This document shows positions 4,577-30,977 of a DNA stretch of 64,000 nt, one piece after another; within the stretch, counting starts at the first letter, position 1, and the number at the start of each line of letters is the position of its first letter. This DNA comes from Campylobacter concisus (GTDB taxonomy: Bacteria > Campylobacterota > Campylobacteria > Campylobacterales > Campylobacteraceae). The notes under the pieces are model-generated. The model did not search any database, was not told the origin of the DNA, and was given only the letters and a program-made list of their open reading frames with translations. A program made the position numbers and the translations under genes. The stretch covers positions 1,556,527-1,620,526 of the forward strand of contig NZ_CP021642.1 in the NCBI RefSeq assembly GCF_003048375.1, given 5' to 3'.

Positions 4577-5092
4577 ATGCGAGCGCAGATAGAGCCTGAC
4601 TTTGAGAGTGCTAGAAAAAAGTATGATGAAATTTTGGAGCAAATTTTAGCCTACACCGACTATTGCGACGAATTTGGCGATGAGGACGGCGAAGAGTACC
4701 GCAAAGTAGAGCAGCGTCTAGCCAAGATAAGCGGCAAAGATATGAGTAAATTTAGCCTGCACGAGTGGTGGGAGGCCGAGGGCGCTGAAAATCTCGCCTT
4801 TGACATCGCTTTGCCAGAGCCAAAAGTGGTGGCTGACATAACAAAAGACGAGCTTAGCGAGATTGTGGAGCGCATGTTGGCGCCTACGCCTGAATTTGAA
4901 GATGATTTTTTAGAGGCATTTTACGCAAGAGTGACATTTGCTTGCAAGGGTGCTTATTTTGCAGAGTTTTTGAAGCTAAATTTTGCCAAAACCTTTAGCT
5001 TTGAGCTCTTTGAGCGCCGCGAGATAGAGGGCGTGATGCGTGAGCTAAGTGCTAACGAGATAGTAGAAATTTTATGGGGCAAAAGAGGATAA
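4577..5092 (+). CDS. acidic hypothetical protein (171 aa) packed between mraY and murD
   Basis: ORF with core-like codon usage. There are 4-nt gaps to the flanking genes. No family recognised. Confidence 0.55.
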   Translation: MRAQIEPDFESARKKYDEILEQILAYTDYCDEFGDEDGEEYRKVEQRLAKISGKDMSKFSLHEWWEAEGAENLAFDIALPEPKVVADITKDELSEIVERMLAPTPEFEDDFLEAFYARVTFACKGAYFAEFLKLNFAKTFSFELFERREIEGVMRELSANEIVEILWGKRG

Positions 5093-5096
5093 AAGT

Positions 5097-6314
5097 ATGA
5101 GAAAATCACTATTTGGCTATGGTGGCACGACAAAGGCGATCGCTAAAAACTTCGTAAATGACGGACTTTGGGATATCTATGACGATAAATTTAGCGAAAT
5201 TTCTAAGGATGAGTTTGGCAATGCTCTTTTGCCAGTTAGCAAATTTGACCCAGCAAAAAGCGGCCTAGAGATACCAAGCCCTGGCATCCCACCTCACCAC
5301 GAGCTTATCAAAAAAGCTAAAAATTTAATCAGCGAATATGACTATTTTTATGAAATTTACAAGGCGCATCTGCCATTTAACATCTGGATAAGCGGCACAA
5401 ACGGCAAGACGACGACCACAAAGATGATGCAGCACCTGCTAGAGAGCAAAGGCTCAGTAATGGGCGGAAACGTCGGCATCGCGCTAGCAAATTTAAACCC
5501 GCACGCTAAAATTTGGATACTTGAGACTAGCTCATTTACGCTGCACTACACAAACCGCGCAACGCCTGGCATCTACGTGCTTTTGCCGATCACTCCAGAT
5601 CATCTAAGCTGGCATGGAAACATGAGCGAGTACGAAAAGGCAAAGCTTAAGCCGCTTGCTAGCATGAGTGAAACGAGCGTGGCGATCGTGCCTGAAATTT
5701 ACGCTAAAACGCCTACAAAGGCAAAAGTGATCGCATATAAGGATGAGAGCGACTTGGCTAAATTTTGCGGCGTAAATTTGGGCGATATAGCCTTTAAAAC
5801 GCCGTTTTTACTTGATGCACTGCTAGCACTTGCGGTGGAGAAAATTTTATTTGACCGCTGTGACGTTGAGCTTTTAAACACATTTGTTATCGAAGCAAAC
5901 AAGCTTGAAGAATTTACTGATAACAATGGTCGAACCTGGGTAAATGACACAAAAGCGACCAACATAGATGCGAGCATTCAAGCCGTAAAACGCTACAAAG
6001 ATCACTTCATGCACCTAATCTTAGGTGGCGATGACAAGGGCGTTAGCATGGATGAGCTATTTGAGATTTTAAAGGGCCTTAAGGTCAAAATTTACGCCAT
6101 CGGCTCAAACAGCGACAAACTTATGAATTTAGCTGCTAAATTTAGTGTGCCAGCCCTAAAATGCGACTTTTTACAAAACGCCGTAAATGAGATAAGCAAA
6201 GAGCTTAAAAGTGGCGAGATAGCGCTTCTAAGCCCAGCAGCTGCGAGCCTTGATCAGTTTAAGAGCTACGCCGAACGAGGAGATAAATTTAAAGAGTTTA
6301 TAAGGGCTCTTTGA
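5097..6314 (+). CDS. murD: UDP-N-acetylmuramoylalanine--D-glutamate ligase
   Basis: Mur ligase ATP motif GTNGKTTTTKM. RBS AGAGGA upstream. Confidence 0.9.
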   Translation: MRKSLFGYGGTTKAIAKNFVNDGLWDIYDDKFSEISKDEFGNALLPVSKFDPAKSGLEIPSPGIPPHHELIKKAKNLISEYDYFYEIYKAHLPFNIWISGTNGKTTTTKMMQHLLESKGSVMGGNVGIALANLNPHAKIWILETSSFTLHYTNRATPGIYVLLPITPDHLSWHGNMSEYEKAKLKPLASMSETSVAIVPEIYAKTPTKAKVIAYKDESDLAKFCGVNLGDIAFKTPFLLDALLALAVEKILFDRCDVELLNTFVIEANKLEEFTDNNGRTWVNDTKATNIDASIQAVKRYKDHFMHLILGGDDKGVSMDELFEILKGLKVKIYAIGSNSDKLMNLAAKFSVPALKCDFLQNAVNEISKELKSGEIALLSPAAASLDQFKSYAERGDKFKEFIRAL

Positions 6315-6463: not shown

Positions 6464-9400
6464 ATGCCAATCACCCCTAGAAATGATGCAAATTTTAAAG
6501 AAAACTTAATAGATATCATCAAACTATCATATAGCGCCGACATCAATAAGCCTTTCATCTCTGGTGACAAGCTACTTATGGGCTATAGCTTTAGTCTAAA
6601 AGACGATCTAGACACGATATGCACTCAAATTTATGGTGCTAGCAAAGCAAAAGTGATCGAGGCTATTAGAAAAACCATAACCAACACTACAACAAAAACC
6701 GTGGTTTCAAAGATAGATGCAGAAAAGCTTTTTAACGATATAAATAATGCTGCAAGGGTTGCTTACGCAAAGGCATCTGGCAGCGCTGGCGCAGAGTTGC
6801 CTGAGTTTAAATTTAGCCAAGATGAGCAGTTAAATGCCATTTTAGAGTCAAAGCTAAAGCCACTAGCGGCTGATATAAAAGAGAAGCTAAGAGGCTCGTC
6901 GCTGGCAATTTTAGAAGAGGTCAAGCTCACTTCATATGTGGCGTCTAATGTTTCAAAAGAGCACGTCGCACTCCTAGCCCTGCTTCACATAAGTAGCAAG
7001 AAAAATATCGACCCAGCTTTAGCAAGCTATATCAAGAGCAAAAGTCGCTTTAAAGCGTGGTTTTGGCTTGCTTTCGAGAGCTTTAGCGGCGATAATCCAC
7101 ATAACCTTAAACTTTTAAGAAAAAAGATCTCAGCTCAGTTTGGCCTTTATGAGTCAGACGAAAACAACAAAGCTCTAAACGACACGTCTAGCGCGGCTAG
7201 CATGGAGCGCGTCAGCTTTGGTGAGTGCATAGATATCTTTACTCACCTAAATATCTCTAAAGCTATGTATGTAACAAAAGACAAAAACGGCAAAGAGCAC
7301 AAAGAAGACGTCACACACTTAGAATTTATGCAAAAAGACAAAGAGAGATCAAACAGCACCGATTCAAAGTGTGAGGGGCTGTTTAAGCCATTTGCTGATA
7401 AGCTAAATTCTCTTTTAGCCTCTCAAACATCAAAGAAATTTAGCACTGAAAATATCTACTGCGTAAATTTAACCTCCTCTTCTACGTCTAACGCTTCAAG
7501 GATAAATAAGCTCTTAAAAAGAAGAGAAGAAGAGCTTTATAAACAAGAGGATATGCTCATACTCTGCCCTATAAAGACTGCTACTCCTATTAGGATATTT
7601 CAGCCTAAAAAGAGCAACTTTACCATCGTGCTAGCCAGCCAAAGCGAATTTGACTGCAGCGAGCTAAACCCAAAAGAGCTAAATCCTAGCAGACCAAACT
7701 ATGGCAAGCTAAATTTATGCGAGCTAATACTCACTGACTTTAAATTTGACTCTTATGAGAAAGAGAACAAAGGCGCTTCAGCTGATAGAGATATCAAATT
7801 TAAAAACGCAAAGACAAAGTCAGATAGTGTGATCCTTTATAAAGAAAACGATGATGGCAAAGATGATAAAAACAAGACAAAGGGCGCTTGCTTTACTAGC
7901 ATAAGACAAAGTAGCGATGAGATAGAGTACAAGCTAGAAGATGGTGTCGTAAAGATGAGCCACTTCCCCCTCCCCTCATCTAAAGACGAATATCTAAATT
8001 TCAACCTTCTAAATTTCGCTAAGGAGAATAACTTTACCCTTAGAGATGATAAAGACTCAGCTATGTTTGATATGAAGCTTCGTCTAGCTCTTGGTAATAA
8101 TGCAGAACCTACATCAACATCTAGCTCAAGCCTTGCTCTAACACTAAATAATCTCATCATTGAAAACGAAAAAGGTGAAGCTAGTGATATAGATAAGATA
8201 TATCTTCACCACTGCGGTGATAAAAATATATATGAGAGTACATCTTTAGTTAAAAATAAAGACTCTGATATCAAAAACTCATATACAGCTACATTTAATA
8301 TCCCTATAGATAGAAATGACAAGAAAGATACTAAGCTTATAGTCTATTCAAGTGATCTAAGCAAAATTTATGATACCAAAGGGATACATGCCTACACTGG
8401 TACAGCTATCATATCTATAGGATATAAAGATAAAAGTGGTGGTAGCTTTAGCTATACAAACAAGGTATCTTTAAGAGATATAACAGATCATATAGTAAAT
8501 GTAGTCTCTGATAGTGAGTATCCATTTAAGACAAATGAAGAGATAAGTTTAAAGGCTATATATAAACAAGAAAAAGGTAGTAAGAGGTATAAAGAGGTAC
8601 TTTGGGGATATAAGGTCATAAAAACCATAGAGTATAACGAAGTATCTAAATCAAATCCTAAAGATGTGGTAGAGCTAAAAGATAAAAAGGGTAAAGAGAT
8701 AAGATTTAAAATTTCAGATCTTATAAAAAAAGATGATCTAGAGAGGCTAAAGCAAGGTGGTCATACTATAGTATTTTTTGCATATCTTGAAGGTGAGAGT
8801 GATAAATTTAAATATCAAAGCGTATATGGTAAAAACCATATAAGGATAGATATAAAGATACCTTTATATATTAAATTTAAAGATGATAAGCTCATCATAT
8901 ATGAGTTTGAGCATGCTATAAAAGAGAAGAGCTTTAAAGCTAGTCTAAATCATGATGATGCCTTAGTAAATAAAAGTGGCTACTTATATATAAATAAAGA
9001 TATGTCAGCACAGGATATAAATATCTATGAAGATGACAAACTTACTAAAGAGCTAAAGAGTGAAGATAGTACAAATAAGAGATATCAAATTTACATAGAT
9101 GAAGCAAATTCCACAAACAATCAAAACCCAAGCAACACAAACCAAACAGGTCAAACAAAGATAAACCAAGATACCAAGTATGGTATCAATCTACTAAGCA
9201 AAGATAATATGAATAGCTTTATCAACTCTTTTAATGAGTCAAAGAGCATAACAAGAGTAGATAAGGGTATGTGGGTGGATGGGGATAGAGAAGCAAATGT
9301 TTTAATAGAGATCAAAGACTATCCTTTTACGCTAAGTATGCTAAAGCAGGTATTTACCAATATAAAAACAAATCAAGAATATATCTTGCAAGAGATGGTG

Positions 9401-10099
9401 GATGAGTTAAATAGAAGAGATGATGAAGATGGAATTCAAATGTATGTAAAATATAAGCTTGATACTAGAAATAGATTGGAGCATTTTTTTGGGCAATGCT
9501 TTGTAGAGGCAAAGACAACAAAAGGTGATTTTACTTTAGAAGAAGAACTGGGGAAATTTACAGAGAATAATATAATTAGCCATAGAGGCAAAGCCAGATT
9601 AGAAGAAGCCAAAAAACTATATCCGCAATATTATGACAAGACAGATCCTTCAAAATGGGCAAAATTTGTTGGTAACGCTATGTACTCTGATCGTGGAAAG
9701 GGTTATTTGGGTAATGATGGTGGCGATGATGGATTTAATTTTAGAGGTAGAGGAATTAAGCAACTTACTGGAAAATTTAACTATAAAGATTTCAACAAAT
9801 ATGCGCATAATAATTATTGGCTAGATGAAGAAGTAAATTTTGTAAATTCACCAGATTTATTAATTTCAGATGGAAAATATGCTCTAGTCTCTGCTGCATA
9901 TTTTTGGACTATAGAAAGACCAAAGCCTAAAAAATATCGTCTTTATGAAATAGCTGATGAAAGTAAAGCAGATTCGGACAATAGCGATATAGTAGAACGT
10001 ATAACTGCTGTTATAAATCCACAAAAACTTAGTCTTGAGCAGAGAAAAGAAGCCTATAAACGCATAAAAACAGCAAATGTGTTTAAAATATTTCAGTAA
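6464..10099 (+). CDS. giant (1211 aa) protein with no signal peptide and a C-terminal GH19 family (chitinase/endolysin-type lysozyme) catalytic domain; putative secreted cell-wall hydrolase effector
   Basis: Long uninterrupted ORF with RBS. C-terminal residues match GH19 signatures from memory: HFFGQCFVEAK vs FLAQTSHETTG; RGRGIKQLTGKFNYKDF vs YGRGPIQLSWNYNYG; NSPDLLISDGKYALVSAAYFWTIERPKP vs [29 protein letters not shown]. The N-terminal ~960 aa are K/D/N-rich with no recognisable domain. Confidence 0.75.
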   Translation: MPITPRNDANFKENLIDIIKLSYSADINKPFISGDKLLMGYSFSLKDDLDTICTQIYGASKAKVIEAIRKTITNTTTKTVVSKIDAEKLFNDINNAARVAYAKASGSAGAELPEFKFSQDEQLNAILESKLKPLAADIKEKLRGSSLAILEEVKLTSYVASNVSKEHVALLALLHISSKKNIDPALASYIKSKSRFKAWFWLAFESFSGDNPHNLKLLRKKISAQFGLYESDENNKALNDTSSAASMERVSFGECIDIFTHLNISKAMYVTKDKNGKEHKEDVTHLEFMQKDKERSNSTDSKCEGLFKPFADKLNSLLASQTSKKFSTENIYCVNLTSSSTSNASRINKLLKRREEELYKQEDMLILCPIKTATPIRIFQPKKSNFTIVLASQSEFDCSELNPKELNPSRPNYGKLNLCELILTDFKFDSYEKENKGASADRDIKFKNAKTKSDSVILYKENDDGKDDKNKTKGACFTSIRQSSDEIEYKLEDGVVKMSHFPLPSSKDEYLNFNLLNFAKENNFTLRDDKDSAMFDMKLRLALGNNAEPTSTSSSSLALTLNNLIIENEKGEASDIDKIYLHHCGDKNIYESTSLVKNKDSDIKNSYTATFNIPIDRNDKKDTKLIVYSSDLSKIYDTKGIHAYTGTAIISIGYKDKSGGSFSYTNKVSLRDITDHIVNVVSDSEYPFKTNEEISLKAIYKQEKGSKRYKEVLWGYKVIKTIEYNEVSKSNPKDVVELKDKKGKEIRFKISDLIKKDDLERLKQGGHTIVFFAYLEGESDKFKYQSVYGKNHIRIDIKIPLYIKFKDDKLIIYEFEHAIKEKSFKASLNHDDALVNKSGYLYINKDMSAQDINIYEDDKLTKELKSEDSTNKRYQIYIDEANSTNNQNPSNTNQTGQTKINQDTKYGINLLSKDNMNSFINSFNESKSITRVDKGMWVDGDREANVLIEIKDYPFTLSMLKQVFTNIKTNQEYILQEMVDELNRRDDEDGIQMYVKYKLDTRNRLEHFFGQCFVEAKTTKGDFTLEEELGKFTENNIISHRGKARLEEAKKLYPQYYDKTDPSKWAKFVGNAMYSDRGKGYLGNDGGDDGFNFRGRGIKQLTGKFNYKDFNKYAHNNYWLDEEVNFVNSPDLLISDGKYALVSAAYFWTIERPKPKKYRLYEIADESKADSDNSDIVERITAVINPQKLSLEQRKEAYKRIKTANVFKIFQ

Positions 10100-10108
10100 G
10101 GGAATAGA

Positions 10109-10900
10109 ATGAAATTTAAAATTATATTGTTAGCCCTAATTGCTAGTTTAAATTTAAGCGCTTTTGAGCCTTTAACCCCTGAAAATGCTATCAATAAATT
10201 TAGTAATGATTTTTACCAACTAAATGATTATGATTCAAGCCCTTGGAGAGACTACGGTACAAAGAGTAAACCAAGCTTTGCTTGCTATGACACCAAAGGA
10301 AAGTATAAATTTAAAAAATACTCTTTAGAAGACTTTATATGCCAGTCAGACTATAACTCTTTTAGGGATAACTATTTTGCTGATATTTATAATCTAATAA
10401 TAAAAGAAGCTCCAAATTTAAAAGAAAAAGCTCAAAAGATAGCTAGAGATAGGATAGCTAAAACTCAAAAAGAGTGTATCAGATACTCCAAAAAAGAGTA
10501 TGACTATAGCTTTGTTGCTAAATCAGCATTTTTTGTATCTGAAAGTATCTACTGCATAAAGAATTTCTATAGAGAGTATACTGCTAAGCTATCTTTAATG
10601 CTTTACGAGAACGATAAAGAGCTATTTAGTAGAATTTACGGTGAAGATTACCACAAATTTAAAGAGGTATTTGAAGATACTTTAAAATATGTACCGATAG
10701 AAAATGGTAGCATGCCAAGAGATGTAAAAAGAACTGAAATAAACAATGACTTTTTACAAAAATACAAAAGTTACCACTATGATGACGACTACCCACAGAT
10801 AGATGACATGTTATATATCATGCTCGTGCAATACTCACTCATTGATAAAAATGGCCATTTAGTTTTACCTGAAAATAGAAAAAACGATGTCAAAAACTAG
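10109..10900 (+). CDS. exported hypothetical protein (263 aa), Cys-containing
   Basis: N-terminal signal-like segment MKFKIILLALIASLNLSAF. Starts 9 nt after the giant ORF's stop. Confidence 0.6.
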   Translation: MKFKIILLALIASLNLSAFEPLTPENAINKFSNDFYQLNDYDSSPWRDYGTKSKPSFACYDTKGKYKFKKYSLEDFICQSDYNSFRDNYFADIYNLIIKEAPNLKEKAQKIARDRIAKTQKECIRYSKKEYDYSFVAKSAFFVSESIYCIKNFYREYTAKLSLMLYENDKELFSRIYGEDYHKFKEVFEDTLKYVPIENGSMPRDVKRTEINNDFLQKYKSYHYDDDYPQIDDMLYIMLVQYSLIDKNGHLVLPENRKNDVKN

Positions 10901-11363
10901 ATTTTTATACTTATTGCTACTTTTAGCTATATTTTCTAATGCTCAAAACTTAAATATAGAAACATATAGCAAGGATAACAAATGCTCCATAAGCATAAAT
11001 GATGAAGAGATATATAGCAGAGAGTGCGAGTATGAGCTTGAACCAAATTTAATATTTTATACCAAAGTTAATAGCAGCGAAGTGTGGATATTTCAAGACA
11101 TACAAAACTATGCTGCTTGCAATGGACACGGGCCTTTGAGAATTTTTGAAAAGAAAGATGACGACAAGATAAAATTTCAAGGCGAGATAGATTGGTGCGC
11201 GGGTGTGCCATTTTTTGAAGTCAGTGATAGAGGCATCTTGATAATAGACAAACCACACAAAAATGCACTAACCAACAACGGCGACCCAAATTTTAAAGGT
11301 AGCGGGAAACTATCTGACGAAAGCAAATATAAATTTGAGAATGGAAAGATCAAAAAGATATAG
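10887..11363 (+). CDS. exported hypothetical protein (158 aa)
   Basis: Signal-like N-terminus MSKTRFLYLLLLLAIFSNAQN. Overlaps the upstream ORF by 14 nt. Confidence 0.55.
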   Translation: MSKTRFLYLLLLLAIFSNAQNLNIETYSKDNKCSISINDEEIYSRECEYELEPNLIFYTKVNSSEVWIFQDIQNYAACNGHGPLRIFEKKDDDKIKFQGEIDWCAGVPFFEVSDRGILIIDKPHKNALTNNGDPNFKGSGKLSDESKYKFENGKIKKI

Positions 11364-11415: not shown

Positions 11416-11781
11416 ATGACAAACAAGATAGTTGTTTTTTATTTTATAGCACTAGGCTTTATAGCGCATAACGCCTACGCAAAAAATATAAATTTAACGG
11501 GGATTTACAAGAATGAGTCTTGTAATATTTCAATAGAAATAACGAAAAATACCAATAAAGCGAAGTATTTTTACAAGATAGTGGAGAATAATCAGACAAA
11601 ATCACAAGGCTATATATCAAGCATAAAAAGCAACGGCGAAGGTGGATTTTATATAAAATTAAAAAAGATTGACGGGATGTATGAAAATGGTAGCATAGTC
11701 ATACAAAACTACGGAAACTCTATGAGCAAGTATATTTATTTTGAAGATTGCGATAGTAAATACTTAAAATTTGATAAATGA
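11416..11781 (+). CDS. exported hypothetical protein (121 aa)
   Basis: Signal-like N-terminus MTNKIVVFYFIALGFIAHNAYA. Confidence 0.55.
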   Translation: MTNKIVVFYFIALGFIAHNAYAKNINLTGIYKNESCNISIEITKNTNKAKYFYKIVENNQTKSQGYISSIKSNGEGGFYIKLKKIDGMYENGSIVIQNYGNSMSKYIYFEDCDSKYLKFDK

Positions 11782-11836: not shown

Positions 11837-12319
11837 ATGGTAGTTTTTAGATTTTTTATTTTAATCAATTTATTCTTTGCATTTATCAAGGCTGATGAGT
11901 TCGGGTATTACTATGAAAATGAAAAATTTTTAATAGCTATTCTGATGTTCGAATGTGAGGGTGACATACATTGTACAAATGGTGGTTATTTTGGGGTAAA
12001 TAAAAGAAATAGCAAAAGTTTAGAAATTTTATCAAAACCAACACCAATAAAAAATAGTATAAATGAGCGCTTGATGGGGTATAAATTTAGAAATTCAAAC
12101 TACATGTATGAAATTTATGGCGACATAATGTCTGGTGGAAAAATGTATTTGAACGTTTTTAAGCAAGGAAAAACTATTTTTAAAAGCGATGATTTACAAC
12201 AGATAGAACAAGAAGAATTCCTATCCAAACTTAAAGAAATAGATAAAAGGCTACCTGTGAGCTTTGAAAAATTTTATAAGAAGCTACAAAACAAATACAA
12301 AAATGAAAACCATCAATAA
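11837..12319 (+). CDS. exported hypothetical protein (160 aa)
   Basis: Hydrophobic N-terminus MVVFRFFILINLFFAFIKA. Confidence 0.5.
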   Translation: MVVFRFFILINLFFAFIKADEFGYYYENEKFLIAILMFECEGDIHCTNGGYFGVNKRNSKSLEILSKPTPIKNSINERLMGYKFRNSNYMYEIYGDIMSGGKMYLNVFKQGKTIFKSDDLQQIEQEEFLSKLKEIDKRLPVSFEKFYKKLQNKYKNENHQ

Positions 12320-13010
12320 AATAATTCTTTTTTATCTAGTGCTATTTATGTCGCTAGCTCTTTTTGCAGAGCAAACCACCAAGCAGTGCTTTAGTAGATA
12401 TTTAGATAGCAAGGCTCATTTTATCAACGATGACAAATTTGATAAATTTGATTTTTATGGCATTATAGCTGACACTCGTACAAAATTTTTGGGCTATATC
12501 GGAGCTGATTATCACAGGCTACATATAAATTTTAACAGCGTCAAAAAGGTCTCAAAGACAAAATATATAGTATCTGGTGAATATAAAATAACCGCAGAGG
12601 CTCGCCCATTTAACGGCGAAATTCAAATAACCAAAATAAAAAAGTATATAAATTTAAACTACAGCGTTGATGACTTTATAAAAGGCAAGATCAAAGCCCA
12701 AGGCATAGCCTTAGCGAGCTATATCTTAAAAGGCGATGGAGGTTTTCAAGCCAAAGGTCAAATGCTCATAAAATGGTACATTAATAGCGATCAAAGACTA
12801 GCGTATGACGATATATCAGAAGATGAGGATATGTACGCAAATGATCTATTTTGTGGAGAGTGCAAGGTGGGCAAGGCGCAAGCAAAACCATGCGCATGGG
12901 GGCATTACAGGATACCAAACAGCGGCGATCTTGATGTGGGAGTTGGGGAATTTAGCCCCAATACAAAATATCTTAACAACGGCTGGAGCGACTTTAACAA
13001 GGATGAATAA
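12303..13010 (+). CDS. exported hypothetical protein (236 aa; start revised from 12264 to MKTINK)
   Basis: Signal-like ILFYLVLFMSLALFA. Overlaps the upstream ORF by 17 nt. Confidence 0.55.
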   Translation: MKTINKIILFYLVLFMSLALFAEQTTKQCFSRYLDSKAHFINDDKFDKFDFYGIIADTRTKFLGYIGADYHRLHINFNSVKKVSKTKYIVSGEYKITAEARPFNGEIQITKIKKYINLNYSVDDFIKGKIKAQGIALASYILKGDGGFQAKGQMLIKWYINSDQRLAYDDISEDEDMYANDLFCGECKVGKAQAKPCAWGHYRIPNSGDLDVGVGEFSPNTKYLNNGWSDFNKDE

Positions 13011-13542
13011 ATTTTCTATAAAAAGCTTTTTAATGCTATCTATAATTTTAGGCTTTCTAAATTTAGCTGCTAGCGAAAATTTACCACGCATAACGAGTGT
13101 AGATAATATCAAGGTTGGTAAAAAACTAGCTTTACATAACGTCAAATACTTCTTAGATGGCGAAAAGGCAAGCTTTATAAATTTAGACAAAACGCAAATA
13201 ATGACGCTTGATTTTTGCTGTGGAGGTAACGGCGAAATTCAAAGGATAAACGTCAAATTTTATGATAAAAATTTGACTAAAGATTATATAAATTTCAGCA
13301 AGATAAAAGAATTTACTACAAATTCTGGTATCAAGCTTGGCGACAAACAAGAGCAAATTTTAAATAAGCTAGGCAAGCCAAACGACCTACTAGAGGAAAA
13401 TGACACAACTACTGTTACCTATACCACCAAGCAAAGTAAGAGCCGCCTCTTGCAAGAATTTGACATGCCGCTCTACTATGAGAAATTTATCTTTTATGGC
13501 GATGTTTTAAAAGAGTATGAATTTGGCTTTGAGTATCCGTGA
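13003..13542 (+). CDS. exported hypothetical protein (179 aa; start revised to MNKFSIK)
   Basis: Signal-like SFLMLSIILGFLNLAAS. Overlaps the upstream ORF by 8 nt. The 12805 start in the ORF track overlaps the previous gene out of frame. Confidence 0.55.
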   Translation: MNKFSIKSFLMLSIILGFLNLAASENLPRITSVDNIKVGKKLALHNVKYFLDGEKASFINLDKTQIMTLDFCCGGNGEIQRINVKFYDKNLTKDYINFSKIKEFTTNSGIKLGDKQEQILNKLGKPNDLLEENDTTTVTYTTKQSKSRLLQEFDMPLYYEKFIFYGDVLKEYEFGFEYP

Positions 13543-29055: not shown

Positions 29056-30977
29056 TTACTTCTCAAACGCTTTTTGCAAGCTAAATGGAAACGCTTGATA
29101 GCCCATAGCATTTGTCATTTTTATCTCGATGCTAGGCTCTTTTGCACCCCACTCAAACTCATCGATGTGCGGGCTAGGAAGTCCTACTGGGCGACCTTTT
29201 GCGATGTCAAACTGCATACCAGCAACAGCTGAATAGACCATCACGCTATCAAGGTCATCTTGATACTGCGTAAGGCTAGTAACTGAGCTATACCACTCTT
29301 TGCCACGCTCTTTGCCGTACTCCCAGATCTGCTCAACGGTCTTTTTGTTCTCATCGATCTTATAAACGACCGCACGAGAGTACTTCATGCCAGCGATGGC
29401 TGGTTGCTCCATGCCCCTTGTGTCGCCGTTGTCAAAGACGCTTAAATAAATTTCGCCCTTTTTAGACTTGCTGTCTATCCTAAATGCCGTATGTTGCGTC
29501 CATTGCCAGTCAAAGCCACCTTTGTCGCTCTCGTATCCTGGGCATTTTGAGTACTCATCTTCGCAGACGATCTTGTTGCCTTTGCTATCGACTGGCTGAA
29601 GCAGCTTATCTTTAAATTTATCGCTCCAACCCTTGTGAGCGCCCATGATCCATTTTACTTGTTTATCACGGCCGATCTTTATAACTGCGTCTTGATGGCG
29701 GCTTGAGATGATGATGCTATCATCGCTTGGGTCGTAATCCACACTATTTACGTGTGCCCAGTTGCGTCCAGGACCAGCGCCAACTATGTCGCCCCATTTA
29801 TCGTGTGTATCCATAGACTGAAGCTCATCAGAGCTTGCTGTGTGGCCTGCTTTTTTAGCGTCTATGTTTAAGCAAACTGCGCCTTGATCAAGTGTTTTTA
29901 GCACGATGTCGCGGTAAGGATCAAGGATTTCATATAGTCTAAAGTCATCAACTACGTTGCCGTCGCGGTCAAGCTCAACGATGACATCGCGCACTGTTCT
30001 TACGTTTTTGCCATCAGCCCTTTTGTAGTCGGCATTTGCCACGCGCAAGAAGTAGTGTCCGTTTTGTGCTACGTCCATACTGTTCTTACGTTTTTGCCAT
30101 CAGCCCTTTTGTAGTCGGCATTTGCCACGCGCAAGAAGTAGTGTCCGTTTTGTGCTACGTCCATTGAGTGAGAGAAGTCGTTGTAGCTAGCTGGTAGCTC
30201 GCGGTTGAAAATTTCTCTACCCATGATGTCGTATTTTGCGTATCTTTGGCCATATCCCCAAGTCATAGCGCCGTCGTCATTTTGCTTAAAGCCCATCATA
30301 ACGCCAGCATGAAATGGCTGTTTTAGGTCGTAAATTTTACTTGGCTCAAGATACCATCTAACCTCGCCTTTTGTATCAAGGATGAAGTTATTTGGGCTGT
30401 AGTTCCACTCGATCGCACCGCCAGCTGGGTTATTCCAAACGACTTTTGTGCCCTTGCCTGTTTTATTTACAAAGTTATTTACATAGTAGAGGCGGTTTGC
30501 AAATTTAGCACTCGCAGGCTTAGTAACCTCGATCTTGTCAAATAGCGCGCCCTTTTGATTTGGTGTGCCAGCGCTCTCTAGGTAGATAGCTGGAGCGTAA
30601 ATTTTATAGCTCTCTTTTATATGCTCAGTCTTGCCCTTGTAACTCTTGTCGTACTCGACTTCAACGGTGTTTTGATAGTCAGCATACATACCAAAAACTG
30701 GGATGCCACCATGTGTGCGAAGATGCTTGTCAGCCACTTTGTAGCTTATCACCTGACCACCTTGTTTTGGCACGATAGTGACCTTAGCGTTGCTTAGTGT
30801 GTAGCCGCCATTTTTGATGACTGCTGTAAGTGGGGCAGTATCGTATGGATTTACCACTACTTCGCCGATAGCTCCTGTTATAGCGTAGTCAAGTTTAGCT
30901 CCGCTTGGACCGCCTATCGCAAAAGCAGCCGTACAAAGTGCAGAAGCAAGCGCAACAGAACACAAAGTTTTTCTCAT
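29056..30977 (-). pseudogene. periplasmic arylsulfate sulfotransferase-like beta-propeller protein, split into two ORFs by an 86-bp tandem duplication
   Basis: The 5' ORF (30069-30977) has a signal peptide. The 3' ORF (29056-30078) restarts with the same residues MDVAQNGHYFLRVANADYKRADGKNVRTV. Removing one 86-bp copy gives a continuous ~611-aa protein. Confidence 0.6.
29993..30164. repeat. perfect 2 x 86-bp direct tandem duplication inside a CDS
   Basis: 29993-30078 is identical to 30079-30164 (ACTGTTCTTACGTTTTTGCCATCAGCCC...GCTACGTCCAT). 86 is not a multiple of 3. Confidence 0.9.

Follow-up and report, generated by a model that had tools for sequence, protein, structure and literature searches.

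The stretch of Campylobacter concisus DNA analysed here (the window; 64,000 nucleotides of contig NZ_CP021642.1 in NCBI RefSeq assembly GCF_003048375.1, positions 1,556,527 to 1,620,526 of the forward strand) contains a gene for a protein of 1211 amino acids (aa) at nucleotides (nt) 6464..10099 of the plus strand, which is composed of a carrier region (aa 1-941) and a C-terminal toxin domain of glycoside hydrolase family 19 (GH19). We consider it quite probable that this GH19 domain is the lysozyme-like warhead of a polymorphic antibacterial effector, which is delivered by a type VI secretion system (T6SS) and is countered by a periplasmic immunity protein encoded downstream. C. concisus is a common campylobacter of the human mouth and gut and is linked to inflammatory bowel disease, and to our knowledge no antibacterial effector of its T6SS has been defined by experiment. 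In the mechanism that we propose, a carrier of about 940 aa, made up of a lysozyme-like head that is catalytically dead and of a central region, would end at the motif GMWVDGD, past which recombination would exchange warheads, each together with its own downstream immunity gene. The effector would most likely be loaded on VgrG and injected by the T6SS into neighbouring Gram-negative cells; in their periplasm the GH19 domain would degrade the sacculus of the target by cutting peptidoglycan glycan strands. The producer and its kin would be shielded by a periplasmic 263-aa protein encoded 10 nt downstream, and five additional signal-peptide genes may form a spare immunity array against sister alleles.

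The C-terminal domain (aa 942-1211; nt 9287..10096, plus strand) was confirmed as a GH19 domain, of the endolysin/TseP subtype rather than the plant-chitinase subtype, by sequence comparison and by structure prediction. When the last 247 aa were compared by phmmer with all Protein Data Bank (PDB) sequences, they matched the SPN1S endolysin of a Salmonella phage (4ok7, 8.5e-11), GH19 domains of mycobacteriophage LysA proteins (1.7e-10 to 3.9e-9) and TseP-C (8xcl, 3e-9), whereas classical plant chitinases merely reached E values of about 0.1-2. A family profile made from an alignment of 42 homologs (alignment A1) increased the similarity to 4ok7 (4.9e-39), to 8xcl (3.5e-32) and to GH19 endolysins (1e-39 to 1e-33), and it reached GH19 chitinases of plants and bacteria with E values of 1e-8 to 1e-5. 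The same alignment was the input for an AlphaFold2 (AF2) model of the domain, with a mean predicted local distance difference test score (pLDDT) of 89.4 and a predicted template modelling score of 0.87, and the top 19 matches of this model in the PDB by Foldseek were all GH19 endolysins, TseP-C or GH19 chitinases (probability 0.93-1.00). The predicted structure thus has the alpha-helical, bilobed, lysozyme-like fold of GH19. A search with the whole protein pointed to C. concisus, where orthologs already carry the NCBI name 'glycoside hydrolase family 19 protein [Campylobacter concisus]'; an exact look-up of the 1211-aa sequence among public assemblies gave no record.

An earlier sequence-only reading of this DNA had called the domain GH19 of an endolysin-like kind, and had proposed a structure prediction as a check; both the family call and that check came out in its favour. 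Its start of the domain, at about aa 965 (nt 9356), had to be moved by about 23 residues towards the N-terminus: the variable part of the protein opens at aa 942 (nt 9287), with structured sequence from about aa 950 onwards. The reading had also taken the protein for a peptidoglycan-hydrolase effector and not for a chitinase, and this is borne out. GH19 is classically a chitinase family, and a true chitinase was therefore considered; however, the similarity to chitinases (1e-8 to 1e-5) is far weaker than that to peptidoglycan-active GH19 enzymes (1e-39 to 1e-32). The domain is thus likely to act on peptidoglycan glycan strands, presumably with muramidase specificity.

The catalytic set of GH19 enzymes, which comprises a general-acid Glu, a second Glu and a water-positioning Ser/Thr, is present in the domain as E1015, E1027 and T1102. 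E1015 (codon nt 9506..9508, plus strand), the predicted general acid, is the Glu of VEAK in the motif HFFGQCFVEAK, whose first nucleotide is 9482, and 90% or more of the 42 homologs have it. The predicted second catalytic Glu, E1027 (nt 9542..9544, plus strand), is invariant in the homologs, as is T1102 at the GH19 Ser/Thr position (nt 9767..9769, plus strand), which is the Thr of 'KQLTG' in the motif RGRGIKQLTGKFNYKDF starting at nt 9743. A block NSPDLL...AAYFW follows downstream of that motif, so that all three motifs quoted by the sequence-only reading were found where it had placed them. In the profile alignments E1015 and E1027 coincide with the Glu pair of the SPN1S endolysin and TseP; E1015, which had been proposed as the catalytic residue before, aligns with the first catalytic Glu of both enzymes, and E1027 aligns with E663 of TseP. 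E663 is experimentally essential for peptidoglycan hydrolysis by TseP, and its mutant is inactive (PMC11893102).

The GH19 domain is one of several alternative ends of the same carrier. Dozens of proteins from the C. concisus complex have the first ~78% of their length in common, at 93-95% identity, and end differently. The conserved carrier terminates in ...SITRVDKGMWVDGD, which includes the junction motif GMWVDGD (aa 935-941; nt 9266..9286, plus strand), and the DNA identity of ~95% to alleles with other C-terminal domains breaks off exactly at nt 9286 or 9294. The alternative domains are an M23 peptidase (PF01551), a CHAP domain (PF05257), DUF5675 (PF18925), a domain called 'GH24' by NCBI, and two further types that match no family, which we term P0055-type and P0082-type, making seven C-terminal classes including GH19 on one carrier of ~940 aa. 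A conserved N-terminal region, a sharp boundary and unrelated C-terminal domains that replace each other are what is expected of a polymorphic toxin, with the junction motif as the recombination boundary. The functional guess of the sequence-only reading stands, but the protein is no isolated case and represents one of the alleles found at a polymorphic toxin/immunity locus. Orphan copies of the toxin, truncated at the 5′ end (967, 626-636 and 185-215 aa) and accompanied by their own immunity genes, are found in other strains; tblastn detected no orphan toxin C-terminal domain in the window, where immunity genes alone occur. The GC content is 0.33 in the central carrier and 0.32 in the C-terminal domain and the array downstream of it, compared with 0.41-0.43 in the flanks, which points to exchanged DNA.

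There are two subtypes of the GH19 domain, about 54% identical to one another. When window positions 9287-9509 are compared with positions 10803-11025 of locus L004, the DNA identity is ~95% up to nt ~9509, after which the proteins are ~54% identical. This suggests a second recombination point within the GH19 domain, near the region of the catalytic Glu.

The C-terminal class predicts which gene comes next. We collected 63 related loci, clustered the C-terminal domains after the junction motif, and clustered the following ORFs (open reading frames) separately. The two classifications correspond strictly one to one in 44 of 44 scorable modules, some of which come from near-duplicate strains, so that they do not amount to 44 independent events. 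The GH19 type (14 modules) is followed by an ORF of 260-269 aa, the M23 type (10 modules) by one of 152-160 aa, and the 'GH24' type (7 modules) by one of 183 aa; the P0082-type and the DUF5675 type, with 4 modules each, precede ORFs of 179-180 and 235-240 aa, respectively, and the corresponding lengths are 156 aa for the P0055-type (3 modules) and 142 aa for the CHAP type (2 modules). A member of the 263-aa family stands behind the GH19 domain in all 14 GH19 modules with an intact downstream ORF. Divergence among GH19 domains correlates with divergence of the next gene (Spearman 0.77 over 78 non-independent pairs). Furthermore, the GH19 domain and its partner, 93-96% and 87-88% identical to those of the window, also occur on carriers that are just 67% identical, which shows that the pair moves as a unit. 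The downstream gene thus covaries with the toxin domain, and each C-terminal type probably has its own immunity gene directly behind it.

In the window, the candidate for the cognate immunity gene (263 aa, signal peptide; nt 10109..10900, plus strand) starts 10 nt past the toxin stop. It is the first of six same-strand ORFs 3′ of the toxin gene, all of which have signal-peptide-like N-termini and none of which matched Pfam; the 263-aa protein also matched no chain in the PDB, the immunity protein X-Tfi(XAC2610) included. Three of the other five ORFs correspond to partners of other toxin types and are putative orphan immunity genes here, as is usual for the orphan cassettes of polymorphic toxins. 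The 158-aa ORF (nt 10887..11363, plus strand) is 89-90% identical to the gene behind the P0055-type domain in other strains, the 235-aa ORF (nt 12303..13010, plus strand) belongs to the family behind the DUF5675 domain in loci L001, L004, L016, L025 and L029, and the 179-aa ORF (nt 13003..13542, plus strand) belongs to the family behind the P0082-type domain. For the remaining two, of 121 aa (nt 11416..11781, plus strand) and 160 aa (nt 11837..12319, plus strand), no toxin partner was identified. These two ORFs, which match no family, are constant companions of the 158-aa orphan gene in other strains. A very large array was observed in C. concisus P11CDO-S1 (L008, 11341-19336), where at least 16 consecutive small ORFs lie behind the toxin gene, 3 of them of the GH19-type immunity family.

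The toxin gene lies directly 3′ of mraY and murD in every genome of the C. concisus complex that we recovered, in carrier lineages of ~94% and ~67% identity alike, and the site is thus a fixed chromosomal one in both C. concisus genomospecies. In the window the immunity array is followed by fdhD, and the remainder consists of housekeeping genes. This setting could be taken to favour a housekeeping autolysin or cell-wall remodelling enzyme, as mraY and murD are cell-wall synthesis genes. However, the N-terminus of the 1211-aa protein (MPITPRNDANFKENLIDIIK...) has no hydrophobic signal sequence, in agreement with the sequence-only reading, and such an enzyme would have no route into its own periplasm. 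Nor would such an enzyme be expected to have its catalytic domain replaced so extremely between alleles, along with partner genes to match, and the low GC content relative to the flanks marks exchanged DNA. We regard a housekeeping role, or the chitinase role discussed above, as very improbable.

The same setting bears on a phage origin, in which the protein would be an endolysin derived from a phage or prophage, or else a lysin associated with the virion, serving phage lysis or entry. Phage endolysins are the nearest relatives of the C-terminal domain in sequence and structure, and homologs were found in 198 phage records, at less than 35% identity. In contrast, the carrier had no match in 50,697 phage genomes, the flanks are mraY, murD and fdhD, and neither phage nor plasmid genes were found in the window. 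The constancy of the chromosomal site in both genomospecies speaks against this origin as well, and signal-peptide partners that covary with alternative C-terminal domains suit a toxin/immunity system, not an endolysin. A lysin in the service of a phage is hardly credible on this evidence. An origin from a phage tail lysin was likewise considered and was rejected because none of those phage genomes matched the carrier. Scans of the window for tRNA genes and Rfam families were empty, which argues against a tRNA-linked island. Promoter- and terminator-like sequences between nt 6200 and 13800 were within the range of shuffled sequence (24 promoter-like against a shuffled mean of 31; 6 terminator-like against 3.9).

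The N-terminal ~230 aa of the carrier (nt 6464..7150, plus strand) appear, with moderate confidence from alignments and profile matches, to be a divergent GH24 (T4-lysozyme-like) fold that has lost its catalytic residues. Distant carriers open with the T4-lysozyme signature E-x8-D-x5-T, for example ...EVEGDKDELYYDGKKLPTIGYG..., Pfam Phage_lysozyme (PF00959) matches 7 of 11 N-termini (best E 3.3e-6), and 4 of the 5 PDB matches of an N-terminal profile are endolysins or lysozymes (E 0.02-0.6). The triad, within EG...Y.D...TIGYG, is intact in P0184, P0221, P0185, P0200, P0201 and P0204. According to the alignment it is not kept in the window protein or in any of the murD-linked alleles of C. concisus, where E, D and T are replaced by Y/S, I/F and L/M. 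Upstream of the homologs with an intact triad lies a gene whose product has a signal peptide and an LprI lysozyme-inhibitor domain (27.2 bits, cutoff 22), and this gene is absent from the murD-linked loci of C. concisus; the comparison coordinates for the lysozyme-like N-terminus and LprI are L005 10001-10700 and L005 8596-10023. This distribution fits an ancestral effector with two lysin domains, of which the head turned non-catalytic. The N-domain of TseP has a structural role (PMC11893102), and the dead head may, by analogy, have been kept for loading.

The link to the T6SS comes from relatives of the carrier. P0184, a full-length homolog with 33% identity over aa 1-949 (E 2e-120), is encoded in the order tssJ-tssK-tssL-hcp-vgrG, a gene with the LprI domain, P0184 and a 153-aa gene. 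In a metagenome scan, a full-length vgrG stood just 5′ of a carrier homolog on at least 10 contigs, and vgrG was matched in part on 2 others. In locus L073 the order is hcp...vgrG, a 165-aa ORF, a toxin of 1109 aa and a 200-aa ORF; a PF11860 muramidase domain forms the C-terminus of this toxin, which shares 35% identity with aa 186-935 of the window protein (E 2e-97). The central carrier region of the window protein (aa ~230-934; nt 7151..9265, plus strand) is similar to vgrG-linked proteins, at 35% identity to the 1109-aa muramidase effector and 33% to P0184. The 1109-aa protein falls in a cluster of 338 members named 'N-acetylmuramidase domain-containing protein [Campylobacter concisus]', and its domain coordinates match those of CCC13826_RS00805, which lies two positions past vgrG in C. 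concisus 13826 and is among the putative effectors of that strain (PMC9676060). A vgrG-linked paralog of the carrier therefore exists in C. concisus itself, and because of this paralog we infer that the murD-linked protein is T6SS cargo, encoded apart from the cluster. The survey of Campylobacter T6SS genes was restricted to the five nearest genes to the left and right of every vgrG (PMC9676060).

Several results weigh against the reading of the window protein as a T6SS effector with a GH19 warhead. The PF00182 search, which the sequence-only reading had named as a check, formally fails: the 1211-aa protein scored 19.3 bits (E=0.001, profile positions 104-166), below the gathering cutoff of 25.5, and NCBIfam gave no match to the whole protein or to the C-terminal domain. 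The predicted structure of the carrier has a pLDDT of 48, so that its fold was not recognised, and the carrier profile matched no PDB sequence. By tblastn, no T6SS protein was found in the window or in any of the murD-linked loci of C. concisus, and in more than 30 of these loci there were no T6SS genes within 10 kb of the toxin; linkage to a T6SS is thus seen for homologs and paralogs but not for the window gene. Searches of aa 1-941 with Pfam and NCBIfam detected none of the T6SS effector markers PAAR, MIX, FIX, Rhs or a DUF4123-type adaptor, and a check of the N-terminus by eye gave no convincing MIX-type motif. All four of the complete genomes with the locus that were checked are T6SS-positive, which is weak evidence because T6SS genes are present in ~82% of C. 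concisus genomes anyway (PMC6018663).

A rival reading is a T6SS-independent bacteriocin of the pesticin/colicin-M type, in which a released carrier would bind a receptor and cross the outer membrane. Once in the periplasm, the GH19 domain would lyse the target cell, and periplasmic immunity would again come from the downstream gene. In favour of this reading, the locus adjoins murD far from T6SS genes, T6SS marker domains were not found, and the carrier is large, matches no family and has beta-sandwich-like central parts. Moreover, all C-terminal types assigned to a family are cell-wall hydrolases that act in the periplasm, which would leave the outer membrane as the sole barrier. On the other hand, homologs and paralogs of the carrier stand repeatedly right behind vgrG, in C. 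concisus included, and the island has no lysis or release gene. We therefore judge a bacteriocin unlikely, and delivery of the murD-linked effector by the T6SS remains the reading that we prefer.

The carrier family is small and narrowly distributed, with 45 representatives among 1.84 billion proteins, and a genome scan showed it confined to the C. concisus complex and to uncultured or unclassified genomes of Campylobacter and Campylobacteraceae. Our literature search found no paper on the murD-linked polymorphic locus, the GMWVDGD junction, the carrier family or the immunity arrays, all of which appear to be new. A bolder proposal, on which we are evenly divided, is that the carrier is an undescribed, Campylobacter-restricted T6SS scaffold. 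It would descend from an effector with a lysozyme head, which is now catalytically dead and serves as a loading or structural module, and would have become a polymorphic platform of at least seven warheads directed only at peptidoglycan. Genomospecies would exchange these warheads at a 7-residue junction, and the platform would be encoded in the core genome, at a distance from the T6SS.

Some other features of this region were recorded. A strongly acidic 171-aa ORF without a Pfam match lies between mraY and murD (nt 4577-5092, plus strand); it is 89-98% conserved in the ~94%-identity lineage and missing from the ~67%-identity one, in which murD is directly behind mraY. In other strains, proteins of 620-626 aa and 1757 aa are encoded behind the toxin/immunity island (L002 17863-19468, L003 13347-19372 and L004 16377-19621), and their N-termini look by eye like type I secretion system adhesin retention modules; these genes are absent from the window. 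Further along the window, an arylsulfotransferase (PF05935) extends over two ORFs with a 10-nt overlap (nt 29056-30977, minus strand; N-part of 302 aa and C-part of 340 aa), and either a pseudogene with a frameshift or an error in the sequencing could explain this. Another ORF, of 742 aa (nt 58316-60544, minus strand), has no Pfam family at E<=1e-5 and is located among housekeeping and glycosyltransferase genes.

The locus offers a testable set of effectors and immunity proteins, with seven warhead classes and a candidate cognate immunity gene for each, and the natural arrays of orphan immunity genes predict which strains resist which individual warheads. If the bolder proposal above is true, a single hypervariable locus and its immunity arrays would govern how strains of C. 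concisus compete in the mouth and gut of humans. The new carrier domain could sharpen the prediction of T6SS effectors in Epsilonproteobacteria, and the GH19 warhead and its inhibitor are candidate enzybiotic and anti-enzybiotic parts. The system is also of evolutionary interest, as a lysozyme domain has apparently been retired to structural duty and as all the recognisable payloads of this polymorphic toxin target peptidoglycan.

GH19 interbacterial toxins with periplasmic immunity proteins are already known, as is the GH19 label of this family in the NCBI annotation. TseP, a T6SS effector of Aeromonas dhakensis (PDB 8XCL, PMC11893102), resembles the window protein in having a C-terminal GH19-type lysozyme domain in a multi-domain effector (profile E 3.5e-32, Foldseek E 7e-6), with E654/E655 and E663 aligned with E1015 and E1027, and in both proteins a second domain of peptidoglycan-hydrolase type is N-terminal. 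TseP binds VgrG and is neutralised by a periplasmic immunity protein (PMC11893102). The N-domain of TseP, however, is an active Zn amidase, whereas that of the window protein is lysozyme-like with its catalytic residues lost. The window carrier is moreover unrelated and much longer, its C-terminal domain is swapped between alleles, and vgrG is not adjacent. The best match in both sequence and structure is the SPN1S endolysin (4OK7; E 4.9e-39, target-length-normalised TM-score 0.67), and other GH19 endolysins (9EOI, 8P8E, 9MS6/7) are alike and have the same class of Glu-Glu spacing. Phage GH19 endolysins are stand-alone lysis enzymes of ~200 aa released by holins, unlike the window domain, which is fused to a 940-aa carrier absent from phages in a chromosomal toxin/immunity locus.

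Among interbacterial toxins, the X-Tfe(XAC2609)/X-Tfi(XAC2610) pair of Xanthomonas citri (PMC10933484) is similar to the window pair in that a GH19 toxin is neutralised by a signal-peptide immunity protein of ~265 aa encoded beside it. Unlike the window protein, X-Tfe(XAC2609) has an N-terminal GH19 domain and uses a C-terminal XVIPCD signal for its delivery by a type IV secretion system, and X-Tfi(XAC2610) is an immunity lipoprotein to which the 263-aa protein has no sequence match. Glh of A. aphrophilus is another GH19 interbacterial toxin with a periplasmic immunity protein (PMC12578953). In its organization the locus recalls Rhs, CdiA-CT and MafB systems, with a conserved N-terminal region, a short junction motif, variable toxins with cognate immunity proteins, and orphan cassettes or arrays. 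It differs from them in that its carrier matches no known scaffold, its junction is GMWVDGD and not VENN or DPXGL, and all assignable toxins of the family are cell-wall hydrolases, none of which matches a nuclease or cytoplasmic-toxin family. The paralog of the CCC13826_RS00805 type (PMC9676060) is close to the window protein in its 35% identity over carrier aa 186-935, its lysozyme-like N-terminus and its flanking signal-peptide genes. That paralog is encoded two genes past vgrG, ends in a PF11860 muramidase domain and showed no polymorphism, whereas the window protein is encoded at murD and is highly polymorphic.

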